Below, in pieces: positions 40,910 through 48,162 of a stretch of 64,000 nt of DNA (position 1 is the first letter of the stretch; each line of letters begins with the position of its first letter). The notes beneath the pieces are model-generated. The model did no database searches. It worked only from the letters and a program-made list of their open reading frames with translations, and was not told the origin of the DNA. The translations under genes were made by a program, and so were the position numbers. The stretch is from an uncultured Granulosicoccaceae bacterium (GTDB taxonomy: Bacteria > Pseudomonadota > Gammaproteobacteria > Granulosicoccales > Granulosicoccaceae): assembly GCA_937998875.1 (NCBI GenBank), contig CALLBO010000071.1, forward strand, positions 8,087 through 72,086, in the 5' to 3' direction.

Positions 40910-42022
40910 TCAAAAACGGATATGACTTGAGGAATTAAGGCTCTTGCGAGCACCACGCCAGTTATCAATATGGAACTTGGTAAACGGCAGTTCGGTGATC
41001 TCAAAGAACCGCGGCCAGCCGATACGATCAATCCAGTCATTGATTCGCTCCCAGTCGCGTGCGTCTTCCTTATAGGCATAGAGAATTTTCTTGACCACCG
41101 CCGTGGCTTCAGGCCAGCGCGGCGGATTATTGGGTATGCCTGCTGCGACGAGTTTTTGAAACGAAGGTTTGCTGCGGGCATTGGAATGATTACCCCCAAC
41201 CCAGACAGCAAGCTTAGAATGCTCCGGGTCATTGATTTGCATCGGCGGACACGGCGGATAGCAGGCACCACAACAAATGCACTTTTTCTCATCAACCTCG
41301 AGAGATGGCTTACCGTTCACCATGGCTGGTCGAATCGCCGCTACCGGGCAACGGGCAACCACTGAAGGTCGCTCACAAACGTTAGCAACAAGATCATGAT
41401 TAATCTTCGGCGGCTTGGTGTGCTGTATATTGATAGCGATATCACCCTGCCCGCCACAGTTAATTTGACAGCACGATGTAGTGATATGTACCCGATTTGG
41501 CATCTCTGCGTGGGTGAACTCATGAATAAGCTCATCCATCATCGACTTAACAATACCTGACGCATCGGTTCCCGGAATATCGCAATGCAACCAGCCCTGG
41601 GTATGGGAAATCATTGCCACAGTGTTTTGCGTACCACCAACAATAAAGCCTGCGTCAGTGAGTGCTTTGATTAACGGTTGAACCTTGGCTTCAGCATCCA
41701 CCATGTATTCTATATTTGAGCGAATGGTAAAACGAACATGCCCGTCGCCATACTCATCACCAATATCACAGAGCTTTCTGAGAGTGTAGACATCAAGGAT
41801 ACGCTGAGTACCAGCCCGAACAGTCCAGATAGACTCACCGCTTGCAGCGGTATGGCATAACACTCCAGGTTGCGGATGTGTGTGACTTTCCCACTGGCCA
41901 AAGTTTCTTAGCATCACCGGATGGACATATTGCATACCATCCGGGCAACCGCTCTCAATGGCTGGTCGCATTTGCTTTTTGGCAGGTTTGCTTGCTGATT
42001 TCCCGGCAGGTGTAGTCGCCAT
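40910..42022 (-). CDS. dsrB: dissimilatory sulfite reductase beta subunit (oxidative type)
   Basis: The ATG lies 1 nt after the dsrA TAA, with GGAGG inside the dsrA end. Contains siroheme/Fe-S Cys motifs and a ferredoxin insert KCICCGACYPPCP. Confidence 0.95.
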   Translation of the reverse strand: MATTPAGKSASKPAKKQMRPAIESGCPDGMQYVHPVMLRNFGQWESHTHPQPGVLCHTAASGESIWTVRAGTQRILDVYTLRKLCDIGDEYGDGHVRFTIRSNIEYMVDAEAKVQPLIKALTDAGFIVGGTQNTVAMISHTQGWLHCDIPGTDASGIVKSMMDELIHEFTHAEMPNRVHITTSCCQINCGGQGDIAINIQHTKPPKINHDLVANVCERPSVVARCPVAAIRPAMVNGKPSLEVDEKKCICCGACYPPCPPMQINDPEHSKLAVWVGGNHSNARSKPSFQKLVAAGIPNNPPRWPEATAVVKKILYAYKEDARDWERINDWIDRIGWPRFFEITELPFTKFHIDNWRGARKSLNSSSHIRF

Positions 42023-42023
42023 G

Positions 42024-43307
42024 TTACGCACCTCCTGCTGCAGCGTCTTTGTCCTGCTCTTTGCGCTCAAACCATTTAGCTGCTTCGGCGTCCCACTCAT
42101 CCATTCTGACGTAGGAGCTTTCACGTGGATGATCGATCATTGCAGGGTCGACTTCGACACCAATACCTTCAAGGAAATTCACCAGACCGATACGTTCAAT
42201 CATCTCGCCGGTACGTTCGTGCTCAAGCGCATTTTCTGCAAAGAAGTCGATGGTCTCTTCCGCTATCTCTGTAATGCGCTCAAAGTCTTCATCTGTTTCA
42301 AGCTTCATGAATGGCACAATGACTGTACCGAACAGGTCACCGATTTTTAGCGTTCGTTTACCACCAATTAAAATACTAACGCCTTTATCGTCACCCGGGC
42401 TGAATGCCGTTGGCACAACATTGAGACAGTGCATACAACGTACACAGTTGCGATTATCTACTTCAATACTGTCATCATCTTTTAAAGCCAGCGCCTTGGT
42501 TGGACAGCGGGTGATGATGTTGTCGATCACGTGTTGTCTGCCCTTTCGATCGACATAGTCTTTAAATGCTTCCTGATCGACTTTCATGTCATCACGCCAT
42601 GTACCAATGACTGCAAAGTCAGCGCGTTCGATCGAGTTCATGCAGTCATTCGGGCAACCTGAGACCTTAAACTTGAACTTGTATGGCAACGCAGGGCGAT
42701 GAATGTCGTCAACAAAGTTGTTTACCAACTCACGATGCACGCGGTGCTCATTGGTGCATGACATTTCGCAACGCGCACTTCCAACACAAGACATAGCCGT
42801 TCGCACACAGGGCCCGGCCCCCCCCAGGTCAAACCCGTAGTCGTTGATCTCATCAAAGAAGTGCTGTGTGTTTTCGGTCGTTGAACCGATGAACATAATA
42901 TTGCCGGTCTGACCGTGAAAGGTCACCAGGCCTGAGCCGTGTTTCTCCCAGCTATCTGCAAGCGTGCGCAACACGTCTGTACTGTAGTGGTTGCCAGCCG
43001 GAGGCTGAACGCGCAAGGTGTGGAATTCTCGCGACTCCGGAAACATATCGCCGACTTCTGAGAATCTGGGAATAATTCCGCCACCATAGCCATAAACACT
43101 GACAGTGCCGCCCTTCCAATATCCTTTACGGGTCTTATAAGAGTGCTCGAGCTGACCGAGAAGATCATTGGCCATGCCGTTGACCCGGTCACTCGGGTGA
43201 TCATCACGCAGACGTTTAATACCAGAGACAAAACTCGGCCAGGGCCCCGTCTCGAGGTGATCCAGCATCGGCGTGTCGTGTTTTTTCCCGGACTCCGAAT
43301 CTGTCAT
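42024..43307 (-). CDS. dsrA: dissimilatory sulfite reductase alpha subunit (oxidative type)
   Basis: Contains CVGSARCEMSC (Cx5C...Cx3C), GCPNDC and the ferredoxin insert CVRCMHC. 427 aa. Confidence 0.95.
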   Translation of the reverse strand: MTDSESGKKHDTPMLDHLETGPWPSFVSGIKRLRDDHPSDRVNGMANDLLGQLEHSYKTRKGYWKGGTVSVYGYGGGIIPRFSEVGDMFPESREFHTLRVQPPAGNHYSTDVLRTLADSWEKHGSGLVTFHGQTGNIMFIGSTTENTQHFFDEINDYGFDLGGAGPCVRTAMSCVGSARCEMSCTNEHRVHRELVNNFVDDIHRPALPYKFKFKVSGCPNDCMNSIERADFAVIGTWRDDMKVDQEAFKDYVDRKGRQHVIDNIITRCPTKALALKDDDSIEVDNRNCVRCMHCLNVVPTAFSPGDDKGVSILIGGKRTLKIGDLFGTVIVPFMKLETDEDFERITEIAEETIDFFAENALEHERTGEMIERIGLVNFLEGIGVEVDPAMIDHPRESSYVRMDEWDAEAAKWFERKEQDKDAAAGGA

Positions 43308-43350
43308 CTACTCTGCCTCTCTGTTGCCGGTTTCCCAGGTCATTTTAGAT

Positions 43351-43377
43351 CTTATAGTCTTGCGTAATTCCTGCCAA
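43351..43377 (-). promoter_or_regulatory. candidate sigma70 promoter of the dsr operon
   Basis: On the minus strand: TTGGCA, 15-nt spacer, TATAAG, ~45 nt upstream of the dsrA ATG. Confidence 0.25.
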
Positions 43378-43513
43378 TAACCCTTTGTGCAAACGCCCGT
43401 CCAGTGACCTATCTCCAAAGGCATAGGCACATATCGCATCGTAAAACGCCTCGACTACGCTGGTTGAGAGGATAGCACCAGCAGTGTATCGTGACTCAGC
43501 TTTCCGATGAACA

Positions 43514-44434
43514 GTGAGCAATAAAGACTTGTTACTTCCTGCCTCTGCATTTCTCTCACAACCCGCGGGCTTTGTCCGATGGAGAGAGCTCAGGCTTGCC
43601 ATCCAGCGCGAGATGCAGCCGACAGTGGTTCAACTCAGCCCATCATTAACCACTGATGACGACGTACAAAATCTAAAACGGCTTTGCAGTCAGGTCGCAG
43701 CGATTGGTTTCTGCGTTTATGAATGGACTGAAGCAACAGAAGAGACAAACCGGGAGGTCCTGGCGCTTCACAGACGCTTATCGCTGGGAACCAGCGATCG
43801 GGGAGTTGTACAACAATCCGATGGCTTGTCACTGTTAGCCGATCTGTCTGATACTGATCAAGGACGCTTTGTGCCCTACACAGCTCGCGCAATGGGCTGG
43901 CATACAGATGGTTACTACAACCCTACGGATCAAAACGTAAGATGCTTCACACTCCACTGCTTGCAACCAGCTGCTACCGGGGGCGCACTTTCTCTCATGG
44001 ATGACCAGTTGTTGATCATCAAACTAATAGAAAAAGCACCGGAACTTGTCGACCTACTGAGCCACCCTGAGGCGATGATGATACCGGGCAACACCGACGA
44101 GCTCGGTCACGACCGTCCAGACTGCTATACACCGGTACTGTTTACCCACGCTGACGGGATACCGGCAACCCGCTTCACAACCAGACTCAGAAACATTAAG
44201 TGGCGAAACGATGAGACTAAAACCGCTGCTGAAACGATGAAGCAATTAATAGAATCGGGCACTGATCAGCACCACACTGTGAGGCTTCAGGCAAATCAGG
44301 GCATGGTGACCAGAAACATTCTGCATCGCCGGGAAGCTTTTACTGATGATCATCTTCACCGCAGGCAAATGCTGCGTGGCCGGTATCTGCAGTTACCACA
44401 ATTAACAGATAATCAGTTAGCGGGTGCATACTAG
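43514..44434 (+). CDS. Fe(II)/2-oxoglutarate dioxygenase of the TauD/gamma-butyrobetaine hydroxylase type
   Basis: WHTDGYY (HxD) and ...NILHRREAF (distal His plus Arg), spaced as in the clavaminate-synthase-like fold. The start is uncertain (GTG 43514 or ATG 43613). Confidence 0.65.
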   Translation: MSNKDLLLPASAFLSQPAGFVRWRELRLAIQREMQPTVVQLSPSLTTDDDVQNLKRLCSQVAAIGFCVYEWTEATEETNREVLALHRRLSLGTSDRGVVQQSDGLSLLADLSDTDQGRFVPYTARAMGWHTDGYYNPTDQNVRCFTLHCLQPAATGGALSLMDDQLLIIKLIEKAPELVDLLSHPEAMMIPGNTDELGHDRPDCYTPVLFTHADGIPATRFTTRLRNIKWRNDETKTAAETMKQLIESGTDQHHTVRLQANQGMVTRNILHRREAFTDDHLHRRQMLRGRYLQLPQLTDNQLAGAY

Positions 44435-44625
44435 TGCTGCATGTGAGTGATTTGTTATTGCAGCACCGCGAAGTCAACACGTTTGAAGAGTTTGTTGAAG
44501 TCGTCAAATTACGTGCCCTGGATGAAATGTTTTTCCGTATTGATCTTAAACCGCCATTCCCGGACACTCCTGAAAACTGGGACATGGTCCTCGAGGCCGC
44601 CTTCAGTAGCGCAAACAAACCGTGA
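44434..44625 (+). CDS. 63-aa hypothetical protein, translationally coupled on both sides
   Basis: The GTG start overlaps the upstream TAG (TAGTG). Its TGA overlaps the next GTG start (GTGA). Confidence 0.4.
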   Translation: MLHVSDLLLQHREVNTFEEFVEVVKLRALDEMFFRIDLKPPFPDTPENWDMVLEAAFSSANKP

Positions 44626-45371
44626 TTCACAGCACTGAAAATAACTCTGCAGATGAACTGAAGCTATCTGCTGCAGAACGTCTGTTGATGGATGATGCAG
44701 GCTACGCCGACAGACAGGATCGTCTTGAGACACTTAAAGAACAATCAAAACAGATCAATAACCCTGTTGAGCTCGCCGCCATTAACCTGGAAATGGCCGG
44801 TCTGCACCTCGACCTGGACGAAAAAAAACAGGCGGCTGTCAAGCTTAACGGACTAGTTGAAATCTTCATTCAACATGCGCAGTTTGAAGACGCAGCAAGA
44901 GCATGTCAGTACCGCTATCTATGTGAAGAGGAAGATTCGATCAGTGCTATCGGACAAGCCGCATGGTTATCAGTTACCTACCCGGTTGATCCCAATTTAA
45001 CGGTAAGCGTTCTTGATCAAATTATTGATGAGACACCGGACGAGTCTGATGGCGCTGCTGTTGCTGCAGCCACCGCCCACTATATTGTTGACCTGCGGTG
45101 CGACCCTGCAGAGAAAAAACATCTGCAACTATTTACCGGCTCGATGCTTGCGCGGGTTGCCAAACGACACAGCAAGATAGAGGATGATGACCAGTTTCAA
45201 CTTTGGGTCCGCACGATGGAACTCGACGAGCCAGAGAAGTTTCTGGTGAGACTGCGCAATGTGATTGACGTTTTGGTACAAACAGACTGGCTGTTTGATC
45301 GTGAGATCCTGCAAAAGCAATTGCCGGACAATCCCGATCATGACATCGACAATACCGGTGCAGATCTCTGA
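44622..45371 (+). CDS. acidic, predicted helical hypothetical protein
   Basis: 249 aa with no recognisable motif. Coupled to its neighbours by GTGA and TGATG overlaps. Confidence 0.5.
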   Translation: MIHSTENNSADELKLSAAERLLMDDAGYADRQDRLETLKEQSKQINNPVELAAINLEMAGLHLDLDEKKQAAVKLNGLVEIFIQHAQFEDAARACQYRYLCEEEDSISAIGQAAWLSVTYPVDPNLTVSVLDQIIDETPDESDGAAVAAATAHYIVDLRCDPAEKKHLQLFTGSMLARVAKRHSKIEDDDQFQLWVRTMELDEPEKFLVRLRNVIDVLVQTDWLFDREILQKQLPDNPDHDIDNTGADL

Positions 45372-46054
45372 TGAATTTATGGCAGGAGAATAGCGACGAA
45401 GTTTCCACCGCCCGGTCATCAAGCATGGCGGATGTGGTATTTAAAATTGAATGCAGACAGCTACCGGTTGACCATGCCGCCGAACTCGCAGAGGCACTTT
45501 GCAAAACGGCACCCTGGATAAAAGACCTGCCAGGAGCCGGTATTCATCCGATACACGTAGCAGGATCCCAAAACGGCTGGCAACGCCCTGACTCCTCAGG
45601 CAACGAACCATTGATTCTATCCAAAAGAACCCGCCTACGGGTTCGCTGCCCTGTTGATCGCGCAAAAGATCTTGTTGACGCGTTAACGGGTAGTCAACAT
45701 AGAATAGGCGCAGAAAATCTAGATATCCTTTCAGGTAGACCGGTACAGCTACAGCAATCTGCAGCTTTATTCTCACGCTACCTTACCTATAAAAACCCAC
45801 CTAAAGATGAAGACGAACTTTTAAGAAATGTTTTAGATGAGTGCGCTGCACTAAACTTTCAACCAACCAAACTGCTGTGTGGCAAGTCCACTATAGTCTC
45901 CACCGCTCAAGGCGACCTCGAAGCGAGAAGCCTGCTAATAGCGGACGTGCCACCCGGTTTCTCACTACAGTTACAAGAAAACGGACTCGGCGATTTTCGG
46001 TTAATGGGTTGCGGAATAATCATTCCACACAAAGATACTGAAGCAGTTAGCTGA
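45371..46054 (+). CDS. orphan Cas6/Cmx6-like RAMP-fold protein
   Basis: N-terminal DVVFKIECRQLPVDHAAELAEAL, central SKRTRLRVRCP, and a C-terminal glycine-rich loop LQENGLGDFRLMGCGIIIP. From memory these resemble Cas6 of subtype I-MYXAN. The start is either 45371 (TGATG coupling) or ATG 45425. Confidence 0.5.
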   Translation: MNLWQENSDEVSTARSSSMADVVFKIECRQLPVDHAAELAEALCKTAPWIKDLPGAGIHPIHVAGSQNGWQRPDSSGNEPLILSKRTRLRVRCPVDRAKDLVDALTGSQHRIGAENLDILSGRPVQLQQSAALFSRYLTYKNPPKDEDELLRNVLDECAALNFQPTKLLCGKSTIVSTAQGDLEARSLLIADVPPGFSLQLQENGLGDFRLMGCGIIIPHKDTEAVS

Positions 46055-46118: not shown

Positions 46119-46775
46119 TCAAGAAACCCCGATAGTGTTTTCACTTCTGTTAACACTGATCTCTGCCTCAGCAAACCTTTCTACAATGCCCTGCAGCACG
46201 GATAAGCGCTCTAACGGATCACTCATCGCGATTACACTATCGCGCTCACCTACAGTCATCGGCAGTAGTTCAGTTAACCGATTACTCACCCACGCGGCAT
46301 CTGCATAATTTGAGCTTGCATACTCAATGAAAGGCTTCACACGATTATAAACACGCCGTAACAGGTCAGATAGTTCGCGATGACACGACGGAAGCGCAAC
46401 TTTCTTCTCAGGTGGCAGCATTTCGACTTCTCCGATTACCAACCCGTTTGAATTGGCCAGTCCTTTTGAATTGGCCAGTCCTTGTGAATTGGAGTGTGCC
46501 TCTACAACACAGAATCTCTGCAAACCTTCTACCACTATAACCAACAGACCATCACCTTCACGATCCCAATCGACAATATTCACCATTGTTCCGTGTCGGA
46601 TGACCTGTGCTGCGCAGGCTTCCGACGCGCCGTTGTCCAGATAGGAGCCGAATCCGCCACCATGCCTGACACACGCACTAACCATTGCGATATGGTGTTG
46701 CTCAATTATCTTTACGCGAAGATAACCTCCAGGAAGCACAAGACTCTTGAAAGGAAACAGCGGCAGTCTTCTCAT
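46119..46775 (-). CDS. LON N-terminal (substrate-binding) domain protein
   Basis: MRRLPLFPFKSLVLPGGYLRVKIIE matches the LPLFPL..V.FPG...L.IFE signature. Standalone Lon-N domain of ~218 aa. Confidence 0.75.
   Translation of the reverse strand: MRRLPLFPFKSLVLPGGYLRVKIIEQHHIAMVSACVRHGGGFGSYLDNGASEACAAQVIRHGTMVNIVDWDREGDGLLVIVVEGLQRFCVVEAHSNSQGLANSKGLANSNGLVIGEVEMLPPEKKVALPSCHRELSDLLRRVYNRVKPFIEYASSNYADAAWVSNRLTELLPMTVGERDSVIAMSDPLERLSVLQGIVERFAEAEISVNRSENTIGVS
46453..46488 (-). repeat. two tandem 18-nt units (ttggccagtccttttgaa / ttggccagtccttgtgaa) inside the Lon-N gene
   Basis: Encodes GLANSKGLANS within SNSQGLANSKGLANSNGL. Confidence 0.85.
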
Positions 46776-48162
46776 AAGCCGTCCACTGTCTCGATATAAA
46801 TGGTGATTCGCCGCCTGCGTCTCTTCACTGCTATTGACGCTATATGATTTTAAACATCCACTGTGCATGGGTTCTCCTTATACACTGACCAAGTTTTCAA
46901 TGACCGCTATTTATTAGTTTCTCCTAACAACATTATTATAGGGTCGCACCCACGAGTAACTGATTGTGCTGAGGTAAACTAGTGTCAATGCACGAGCTGT
47001 TTTTTGCTGGATTTCTGTATCTATTGTTTCAATTTTGCTGCATTCATACTTCAGGAGAACGACATTGTTAAATTCCATTTCATAAGCAAAACACAGGTCG
47101 ATTGCAATAGCCTATTACGAACGGAAATACAAAGACAGGGGAAACCACTGTAGGCCAGTGTTATTGGACTTTACCAGGAATGTCACTCCAGAAAATTTTG
47201 AAAATCCTTGTGAACTGACTAATTACCCAAGGTCCTTATGGAGTGTTATTTGCCTGTTGTGCTTTGAGTTGATTGCGGAGGCTACCAGTTAAGCTGCATT
47301 GAGAAAGATGCTTTCACGTAATGAATACAGCTACCGAGACAAGCCCTTTAAGGTAAAAGAACGTTGGTGTCGCCCAGAGCATTGTTGTAACAATCAATAC
47401 TCTCATCAATCTCTGAAGTGCACATCTCTTCTGTAAAGGTCCGGATACCCCAACTCGAACTAAAGCTGATTTCAGCATTATCTATTCTCAACCTTGCATT
47501 ATCGCCTGAACGGCAAAACCATTGAATCGCACCACAGTTTTTAGAAGCGTTTACTCCATCCAGTATTGTGACGTGATTGAATACCTTATCCCCTCTCCCC
47601 TCCAGACCCCATCCCAGCCGCGCTGGCTGGAATTACTGCCCCCCCTTTAACACCGGGTTTTCTAAACTTCCAATGGCGCTAAAGCCACCGTCGACGCTAA
47701 TAGTGGACTCGGGCGCATTTCAATTTCAGTACCGGGTTCAATCTGAAGTGAGCCATCGGCCACGCTTACCTCACAAACGCACGCACGGGCGAGTAACAGG
47801 CTGCTGCATCGTCGCTACAGCACGCCACGGCGCCGCCCGGTGTTGCGAGCCTGAAAAAGAAATTCAAGCATTCGACGCCGCTAACCCCACCACGAAGTGC
47901 AATTCACATTGAGGCTATATGTATGACAATGGGAATTTATTCTCATTGACACTACAGATTTTTCTCCGTAGAGTTCTAATTACAGTATCAGAGGGTATTT
48001 TTTCCCTTTATTTCTGCTGTAGTTGTGATTGCAACTACCGGGATGGACTGAATCTTTTGCTACCCGGTCGCACCGCAGACCAGTCGGCGTGGCGCACCGA
48101 CTAAGAACGCAGGCTAACGGCATTGACTACCCAATAGTCAGCCAAAGGAGAGGAGCTTCACC

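Follow-up and report, generated by a model that had tools for sequence, protein, structure and literature searches.

We examined a stretch of DNA from an uncultured Granulosicoccaceae bacterium (64,000 nucleotides of contig CALLBO010000071.1; hereafter the window), in which a cassette of four genes, here called g1 to g4, lies divergent from dsrA, a gene of the Dsr pathway of sulfur oxidation. The Dsr pathway is the main route of stored-sulfur oxidation in many bacteria and animal symbionts, and its regulation and assembly are poorly understood. The first gene, g1 (43514-44434, plus strand), reads from a GTG start as a 306-aa TauD-superfamily Fe(II)/2-oxoglutarate (2OG) oxygenase and corresponds to dsrQ, an accessory member of the module; a public gene call puts its start five codons further downstream, at TTG 43529. 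Three core members follow on the same strand: g2 (44434-44625), encoding an acidic protein of 63 aa (pI 4.6); g3 (44622-45371), encoding an acidic, all-helical protein of 249 aa (pI 4.5) that resembles tetratricopeptide repeat (TPR) proteins; and g4 (45371-46054), encoding a 227-aa protein with the Cas6 fold, one of the repeat-associated mysterious proteins (RAMPs), in the PF09559/Cmx6 lineage. Stop and start codons overlap at all three junctions (TAGTG at 44432-44436, GTGA at 44622-44625 and TGATG at 45369-45373), as they also do in the cassette of locus L001, and the identical cassette was recovered in two independent sequencing runs. The dsrA gene (42024-43307, minus strand), whose product is 74-94% identical to the DsrA of related loci (where the gene calls match PF01077 and PF03460), is separated from g1 by a spacer of 206 bp (43308-43513), and a gene for a Lon N-terminal domain (46119-46868, minus strand; PF02190, E 6.5e-16) converges on g4. 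A reading made earlier from the letters alone, which we call the sequence-only reading, had placed the four open reading frames (ORFs), their overlaps and both flanking genes exactly so. It had also described the cassette as self-contained, which fits the window but not most Chromatiaceae or Thioalbus, in which a DsrC-family gene is added after g4.

Comparison across genomes shows that g2-g3-g4 is a conserved unit dedicated to reverse-Dsr sulfur oxidation rather than to CRISPR immunity, to which dsrQ may be added at the front. In a scan that took one genome from each species, 419 species genomes had a g4 relative carrying the clade-specific motifs described below, and searching with the window proteins we compared the 80 best of these 419, from the Granulosicoccaceae and Chromatiaceae; seven of the fetched loci lie on contigs that break off within the cassette or shortly before it, and 74 loci are informative. 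The unit adjoins dsrAB, in divergent orientation, in 72 of the 74, with g4 identities of 38-57%. The same three genes lie beside dsrAB in Thioalbus denitrificans and in locus L089, and in Allochromatium vinosum DSM 180 they are Alvin_1250 (g2), Alvin_1249 (g3) and Alvin_1248 (g4), next to dsrA (Alvin_1251) and with no dsrQ. All four proteins are found in the same order in dozens of genomes, at identities of 38-84%, which puts the cassette far beyond chance; the suggestion that its genes travel together and with dsrAB is thus well founded.

Only two loci with upstream sequence have g4 without g2, g3 and dsr genes. In the first, from a Granulosicoccaceae metagenome-assembled genome (MAG; L044, 2273-2974), g4 stands alone, with no g2, g3, dsrQ or dsrAB nearby; its motif is degraded (GCG to GFG, and H220N), and its downstream Sel1 and Rieske neighbours are those seen in loci L001 and L003. 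This copy appears to be a remnant from a genome that lost dsr, and its degradation is as expected if the function of g4 depends on dsr. The second is from a Candidatus Thiosymbion ectosymbiont (L052, 9078-10323). Its g4 homolog, whose motif is intact, has nadC on one side and an RspA-like gene on the other, and the 9 kb upstream contain none of g2, g3 and dsrA, so that a g4-rspA pair is seen here in another context detached from dsr.

The oxygenase gene is far less constant than the three genes that follow it. An intact dsrQ is present in 38 of the 72 loci and absent from the other 34, and organisms without it include Thiohalocapsa, Lamprocystis, Thiorhodococcus and A. vinosum. Relics of dsrQ, frame-shifted or fragmentary, persist between dsrA and g2 in two loci (L037, 8026-8837, Thiocystis minor DSM 178; and L075, 8298-8757), which indicates that some purple sulfur bacteria lost the oxygenase recently, and in five loci insertions of 1.7-6.2 kb separate dsrA from dsrQ. 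Because dsrQ is missing from 34 loci and is a pseudogene in two, we take g2-g3-g4 as the conserved core, and the sequence-only reading went too far in treating the 2OG dioxygenase as a fixed partner of the Cas6-like protein. An in-frame fusion of dsrQ and g2 (a 370-aa ORF) occurs in one Chromatiales MAG only (L032, 2265-3377; L019 has a stop codon), a single unverified case which hints that the two products act together.

A second variable element lies at the other end of the unit. A DsrC-family (PF04358) gene of RspA type stands behind g4, on its strand, in 49 Chromatiaceae-type loci and also in Thioalbus; its product has neither redox cysteine and ends in KQGTKIAGLPxVxRKGGY (within L026-L085, for example L030 10869-11207 and L070 10846-11184, and besides these L086 9552-9890 and L089 9203-9541). 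No such gene follows g4 in the window, in any of the 20 Granulosicoccaceae-type loci or in A. vinosum; like dsrQ, it is an accessory, lineage-specific addition.

The product of g4 belongs to the Cas6 family by several measures. It matches Pfam PF09559 with E 3.8e-49 (167.7 bits against a cut-off of 26.7) as well as the PADLOC Cas6 models, and its profile matches the type I-B Cas6 8fcj_B (E 1.3e-17). An AlphaFold2 (AF2) model with a predicted local distance difference test (pLDDT) of 87.7 returned 8fcu_B and 8fcj_B as the top Foldseek matches (E 1e-16, TM 0.76-0.80), followed by Pfu Cas6 and Cse3, and has the two tandem RRM/ferredoxin-like domains of Cas6. The C-terminal glycine-rich loop of the family, GhGxxxxxGhG, is present as G205-L-G207-D-F-R-L-M-G213-C-G215; all 84 orthologs keep G205, G207 and G213, and G215 is kept in each of the 83 with a residue at that place. 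Profile match and structure model thus agree with the sequence-only reading, which had recognized a RAMP-like loop and a Cas6-like protein in g4. Automatic annotation as type I-MYXAN Cas6/Cmx6 goes a step further, as the score against the NCBIfam equivalog for Cmx6 (TIGR02807), 92.6 bits, is under the cut-off of 98.85.

At several places g4 has been altered in ways particular to its clade. An invariant insert, H62-V-A-G-S-Q-N-G-W-x-R-P73, does not occur in the 8fcj Cas6, and neither do four residues that are nearly or fully fixed in the 84 orthologs: C28 (82 of 84), H35 (all), H62 (83 of 84) and C170 (all). These clade-specific invariant residues point to purifying selection for a new function. 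The invariant pair D34-H35 follows strand 1 and precedes helix 1, a position at which several Cas6 enzymes have their catalytic histidine; the equivalent of H35 in 8fcj_B is an asparagine. Six invariant basic residues are kept (R72, R86, R92, R136, K167 and K221), and the protein as a whole is acidic, with a pI of 5.6 and a family median of 5.95, against a net charge of about +5, by hand count from the alignment, for the aligned part of 8fcj_B.

Nothing in the surroundings of g4 suggests CRISPR immunity. No CRISPR array was found by Tandem Repeats Finder (TRF) or a k-mer array scan in the window or in the roughly 1.43 Mb formed by the window and 88 loci, no Cas-model match other than g4 was found in the cassette by PADLOC, and Rfam gave no match in the window. 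We therefore rejected a CRISPR remnant as the identity of the locus, and within these loci g4 is an orphan in the sense that it has no CRISPR context.

The two middle genes belong to families that the databases do not name. Neither g2 nor g3 has a match in Pfam, NCBIfam, PADLOC or PHROGs, in keeping with the statement of the sequence-only reading that it recognized nothing in them; PDB sequence searches with the two proteins returned nothing significant, and neither family has a conserved cysteine throughout. The g2 family is large (3971 database homologs, including Alvin_1250), and 20 aligned orthologs share the motif FFRMDVKPPYPDTPENWEDRLEAAFSG. Its members carry an NCBI and UniRef label that would make them fragments of DsrC, a possibility we rejected: when the g2 alignment was compared with one of DsrC/RspA proteins, hhalign gave a probability of 0.2%, and there is no PF04358 homology.

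For g3 we found 1351 homologs, every one annotated as hypothetical. Its AF2 model (pLDDT 90) has 14 helices, and the best Foldseek matches are TPR, Sel1 and kinesin-light-chain (KLC) repeats at low TM, none of them significant (E 0.04-0.3). A profile search of 1.84 billion representatives reached only 182 clusters, with a weak tail of C-terminal TPR regions of STAND NTPases, and the UniRef label of the Thioalbus ortholog is tetratricopeptide repeat protein. The family has motifs of its own, IDETPDxSDGAAVAAATAHY, FLVRLRNVIDV and DWWFDR. We also considered a Cascade large or small subunit and a TorD/NarJ-type chaperone, neither of which appears among the listed Foldseek matches, where only the weak TPR-like ones stand. 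Outside the cassette, a solitary g3-like gene lies between genes for cyclic nucleotide monophosphate (cNMP)-binding proteins in a Gallionella MAG (L087, 3708-4412), and a g3-like C-terminal domain occurs in a 1039-aa membrane spermidine-synthase-like protein (P0270); this fusion, and the otherwise weakly matching STAND-TPR proteins, are uninformative as to partners.

As for g1, it matches PF02668 (TauD) in Pfam with E 4.8e-15, and the stretches WHTDGYY and NILHRREAF, to which the sequence-only reading had pointed, are indeed those of an Fe(II)/2OG dioxygenase. H130, D132, H271 and R284/R288/R290 are invariant in an alignment of 37 orthologs (and again in A5), as is the block W129-H130-T131-D132-G-Y-Y-N136, giving the HxD...H facial triad and 2OG-binding arginine of the TauD/TfdA superfamily. 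In NCBIfam, g1 has weak matches to the TMLH, BBOX and TmpA models (among them TIGR02410, E 2e-9) and none to a TauD-specific equivalog, and taurine dioxygenase, TauD proper, is not among its best characterised relatives. The best solved relative of the g1 profile is TmpA (6npb, E 2e-9), followed by FrbJ and BBOX (BBOX 1e-5), while a PDB search with the single sequence gave nothing significant. A tauD-like gene in this place is not novel. As a PF02668 gene immediately upstream of and divergent from dsrA, across the 206-bp spacer, g1 is dsrQ as defined in PMC7596348, a name given there after Lenk et al. 2012. PMC7596348 places such a tauD-like gene, divergent from dsrA, in Roseobacter-clade fosmids, in aerobic chemotrophic sulfur oxidisers and in Myxococcales SURF_8, and gives its function as unknown.

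The spacer between dsrA and the cassette has three conserved blocks when aligned, of which two coincide with predicted divergent promoters and the third is a palindrome between them. On the dsrA side a consensus scan predicts a sigma-70-type promoter at 43349-43377 (minus strand; -35 TTGGCA, -10 TAAGAT), both hexamer blocks of which are conserved in the aligned Granulosicoccaceae intergenic regions. On the cassette side the same kind of scan predicts a promoter at 43464-43492 (plus strand; -35 TTGAGA, -10 TATCGT), at the place of which TTGTCA...TGTATCGT/TGTATCTT is conserved in loci L006-L008. The palindromic, operator-like site CTATCTCCAAAGGCATAG (43409-43426, consensus TATCCC-N4-GGGATA) is the sole perfect match to the degenerate palindrome pattern in the window, where a second site has 2 mismatches. 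Allowing at most two substitutions, the 500 nt ahead of dsrA contain exactly one copy of TATCCC-N4-GGGATA in 63 of the 72 loci, compared with 28 matches elsewhere in 1.18 Mb of these loci. It is also found upstream of dsrA in A. vinosum (L088, 7693-7708) and in Thioalbus, and across the Granulosicoccaceae, Chromatiaceae and Thioalbus it stands some 105-360 nt upstream of the dsrA start.

We considered whether this palindrome might be an RNA hairpin and rejected it, as the site is upstream of both predicted promoters and has uncompensated mismatches at stem position 4/13. Because it also stays with dsrA where 3 kb has been inserted (L016 and L023), we read it as a DNA site, and it looks like a putative operator of a dsr regulator.

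Published expression data for A. vinosum bear on the orthologs of the three core genes. According to Table S2 of PMC11267869, in ratios that are a third-party re-derivation from the microarrays of Weissgerber 2013, Alvin_1250, Alvin_1249 and Alvin_1248 stood at 17.7, 6.3 and 12.5 on elemental sulfur relative to sulfide (p 0.002-0.009), dsrA and dsrB at 0.24 and 0.17 (changes of marginal significance, p ~0.06-0.07) and the next gene, Alvin_1247, at 0.43. In the RNA-seq comparison of pyrite with sulfide in the same table, the three genes were unchanged (0.9-1.1) and dsrA fell to 0.038. Alvin_1250-1248 is thus expressed, moves as a unit, as co-transcribed genes would, and responds to the sulfur source, and it is not positively co-regulated with dsrAB. 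The sequence-only reading had supposed co-regulation with sulfur oxidation; a response to the sulfur source is there, but the direction is not shared with dsrA, the cassette genes being up where dsrAB is down.

We read these findings as describing a dsr-dedicated module built around an exapted Cas6, whose role is most likely regulatory or modulatory; taken whole, with the part that is directly observed counted in, this reading seems to us evenly balanced between right and wrong. We favor a regulatory role because of the divergent layout around a conserved operator-like site, the RspA-type neighbour, the TPR-like adaptor and expression opposite to that of dsrAB. On this reading, g2, g3 and g4 could form a cytoplasmic complex in which the acidic, TPR-like g3 is the scaffold for the two others, the small acidic g2 and the Cas6-derived g4, and the complex would tune dsr according to sulfur status rather than act as a stoichiometric part of an enzyme. 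Tuning might work through dsr transcripts, or through binding of Dsr proteins or of a regulator that acts at the shared spacer. Where the organism is an aerobe, dsrQ would contribute a hydroxylation input that depends on O2, exerted on g2, on another partner or on a small molecule.

A more specific account of origin and mechanism, which we offer tentatively and expect to fail somewhat sooner than to hold, is that a type I CRISPR-Cas system was the source of a Cas6 which was then rebuilt, along with proteins of two new families, to control or assist dissimilatory sulfur oxidation. The result would be either a hairpin-specific RNA switch acting on dsr transcripts or a RAMP fold turned to some ligand other than RNA, for example sulfur, a metal or a cofactor; an exapted RAMP of the latter sort was also one of the options offered in the sequence-only reading.

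Several points weigh against a regulatory module. Family and PDB searches recognized no DNA-binding or other regulatory domain in g2, g3 or g4, and we found no conserved RNA hairpin or repeat fit to be a Cas6 substrate. The elemental-sulfur ratios are second-hand, and the dsrAB changes among them are those of marginal significance. The 80 loci compared are those most similar to the window protein, and so cover its nearer relatives. Finally, the strict linkage to dsrAB and the cysteines and histidines gained in the Cas6 cleft suit a structural or sulfur-handling accessory equally well.

Such a protein-level accessory is the main rival, one we consider rather unlikely: a maturation factor or chaperone of DsrAB, or an extra station in the TusA-DsrEFH-DsrC relay, in which the Cas6 cleft would have been rebuilt as a Cys/His site for persulfide sulfur, a metal or a cofactor, with g3 as its docking scaffold. 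The near-absolute linkage to dsrAB in two families, the C28, H35, H62 and C170 seen to be gained in the g4 alignment, the lost net positive charge of g4, the DsrC-family neighbour in most Chromatiaceae and the degraded g4 of the dsr-less L044 would all suit it. A stoichiometric helper would not ordinarily have mRNA that runs opposite to or independently of dsrAB, however, as that of the module does in A. vinosum. In addition, the neighbouring DsrC paralog is without both redox cysteines, and g2 and g3 offer no family-wide cysteine to take part in a relay.

It is less probable still that g4 remains a Cas6 that binds or cuts RNA and is now devoted to a single cellular hairpin, for example in a dsr transcript; it would then switch the long dsr operon post-transcriptionally, its activity modulated by g2 and g3. 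The fold, the invariant GhGx5GhG loop, the placement of D34-H35 and the six invariant basic residues would all serve such an enzyme, and the inverse behaviour of module and dsrAB mRNA would suit an RNase that destabilises dsr mRNA. However, we found no conserved hairpin, repeat or stable structure in the cassette, its flanks or the intergenic gaps of dsr (z-scores above -1.1) and no Rfam match, and the lone conserved palindrome is upstream of both predicted promoters and tolerates mismatches in its stem. RNA as the main ligand of g4 is also disfavoured by the lost net positive charge, the protein being acidic overall where the aligned part of 8fcj_B is not. The RNA hydroxylation module proposed in the sequence-only reading found no support for the same reasons, there being neither a conserved RNA structure or repeat nor the net positive charge of a true Cas6.

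Scavenging of organosulfonates, with dsrQ releasing sulfite from a sulfonate in the manner of TauD and g2-g4 as helpers, seems to us very unlikely. A speculation that DsrQ releases sulfite from sulfonates appears in PMC7596348 and PMC9371685, and the Fe/2OG site is intact. Nevertheless, dsrQ is missing where g2-g3-g4 persists in A. vinosum and in 34 of the 72 loci, the cassette has neither a transporter gene nor one related to sulfonates, and the nearest characterised relatives of dsrQ are TmpA, FrbJ, BBOX and TMLH, which are hydroxylases of phosphonates and trimethylammonium compounds, rather than TauD.

An ordinary orphan cas6, whether a decayed type I-MYXAN/I-B remnant or the helper of a distant array that lies beside dsr by accident, has the Cas6/Cmx6 annotation and the PADLOC matches in its favour and next to no likelihood, as it is effectively refuted by the synteny (g2, g3 and dsrA recur as its neighbours in two families and over 70 genomes, with identities of 38-57%), and the missing arrays and further Cas-model matches in the cassette, the sub-cut-off equivalog score and the clade-specific invariant residues also speak against it.

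We found no description in the literature of g2-g4 or of a Cas6-like gene with dsr, although mention in figures or tables of earlier papers, including Lenk et al. 2012, is possible. The sequence-only reading, which knew of no pathway pairing a 2OG dioxygenase with a Cas6-fold protein, is matched to this extent by the published record. What is new is a Cas6-family protein in a non-defence genomic role and a set of new dsr-associated genes; the tauD-like dsrQ was already known. Three uncharacterised genes beside dsrA in the Granulosicoccaceae, Chromatiaceae and Thioalbus are a testable addition to a long-studied pathway, and as Alvin_1248-1250 they are present in the genetically tractable A. vinosum. 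If the account of a captured and rebuilt Cas6 is true, a Cas protein has been recruited into core energy metabolism and a model organism has three unrecognised dsr genes; for CRISPR biology, g4 is a clean candidate for recruitment of Cas6 outside defence.

The findings also bear on annotation. A name in wide use for the 63-aa g2 proteins is "sulfur relay protein DsrC" (for example P0471, P0500 and P0504, the last being Alvin_1250), and g4 proteins (for example P0006 and P0040) are named "type I-MYXAN Cas6/Cmx6" despite a sub-cut-off score and no CRISPR context. The public annotation of both families appears to be wrong, so that hundreds of false "CRISPR-associated" and "DsrC" labels can be flagged.

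Elsewhere in the window, the mechanical dsrB ORF (40910-42124) takes as its start a GTG that lies within dsrA by about 100 nt; translation probably begins at the ATG of MATTPAGK, close to where dsrA stops. The Lon N-terminal domain gene contains an 18-nt tandem repeat of 2.6 copies (46447-46492) that encodes the repeated peptide SQGLANSKGLANSNGL, and a 120-nt tandem repeat of 2.3 copies with 77% matches is present at 1676-1956, where there are ORFs on both strands.

Each member of the module can be set beside a known system from which it departs. DsrQ is closest to the branch of TmpA, gamma-butyrobetaine hydroxylase and trimethyllysine hydroxylase, which provides its best profile matches and with which it shares the conserved HxD...H and 2OG-binding arginine. 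It scores far under the equivalog cut-offs of that branch, however (37 vs 268 bits), and the matches to these enzymes of about 380 aa are limited to the catalytic C-terminal part of a DsrQ of about 300 aa. In the cited accounts dsrQ is a tauD-like gene only, whereas in the window it opens an operon in which the three genes after it are the better conserved part. The RspA-type gene that follows g4 in the Chromatiaceae and Thioalbus is a member of PF04358 from which both C-terminal cysteines are gone. As an all-helical repeat protein whose nearest folds are TPR, Sel1 and kinesin light chain, g3 is like the TPR/Sel1-type adaptors, but it differs from them in having no significant structural match (E > 0.04) or Pfam TPR match and in having signature motifs of its own. 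The Cas6-fold protein g4 shares its fold, its GhGx5GhG loop and a similar length with the Cas6 of type I-B and I-MYXAN systems (PF09559, TIGR02807), such as chain B of 8FCJ and 8FCU from a type I-B CRISPR-associated transposon (CAST) Cascade. It differs from that Cas6 in the extra HVAGSQNGWxRP loop, in C28, H35, H62 and C170 and in a net charge that is acidic rather than basic, and, where a Cas6 of those systems would have an array and other cas genes, g4 has g2 and g3 as its partners and a fixed position beside dsrAB.

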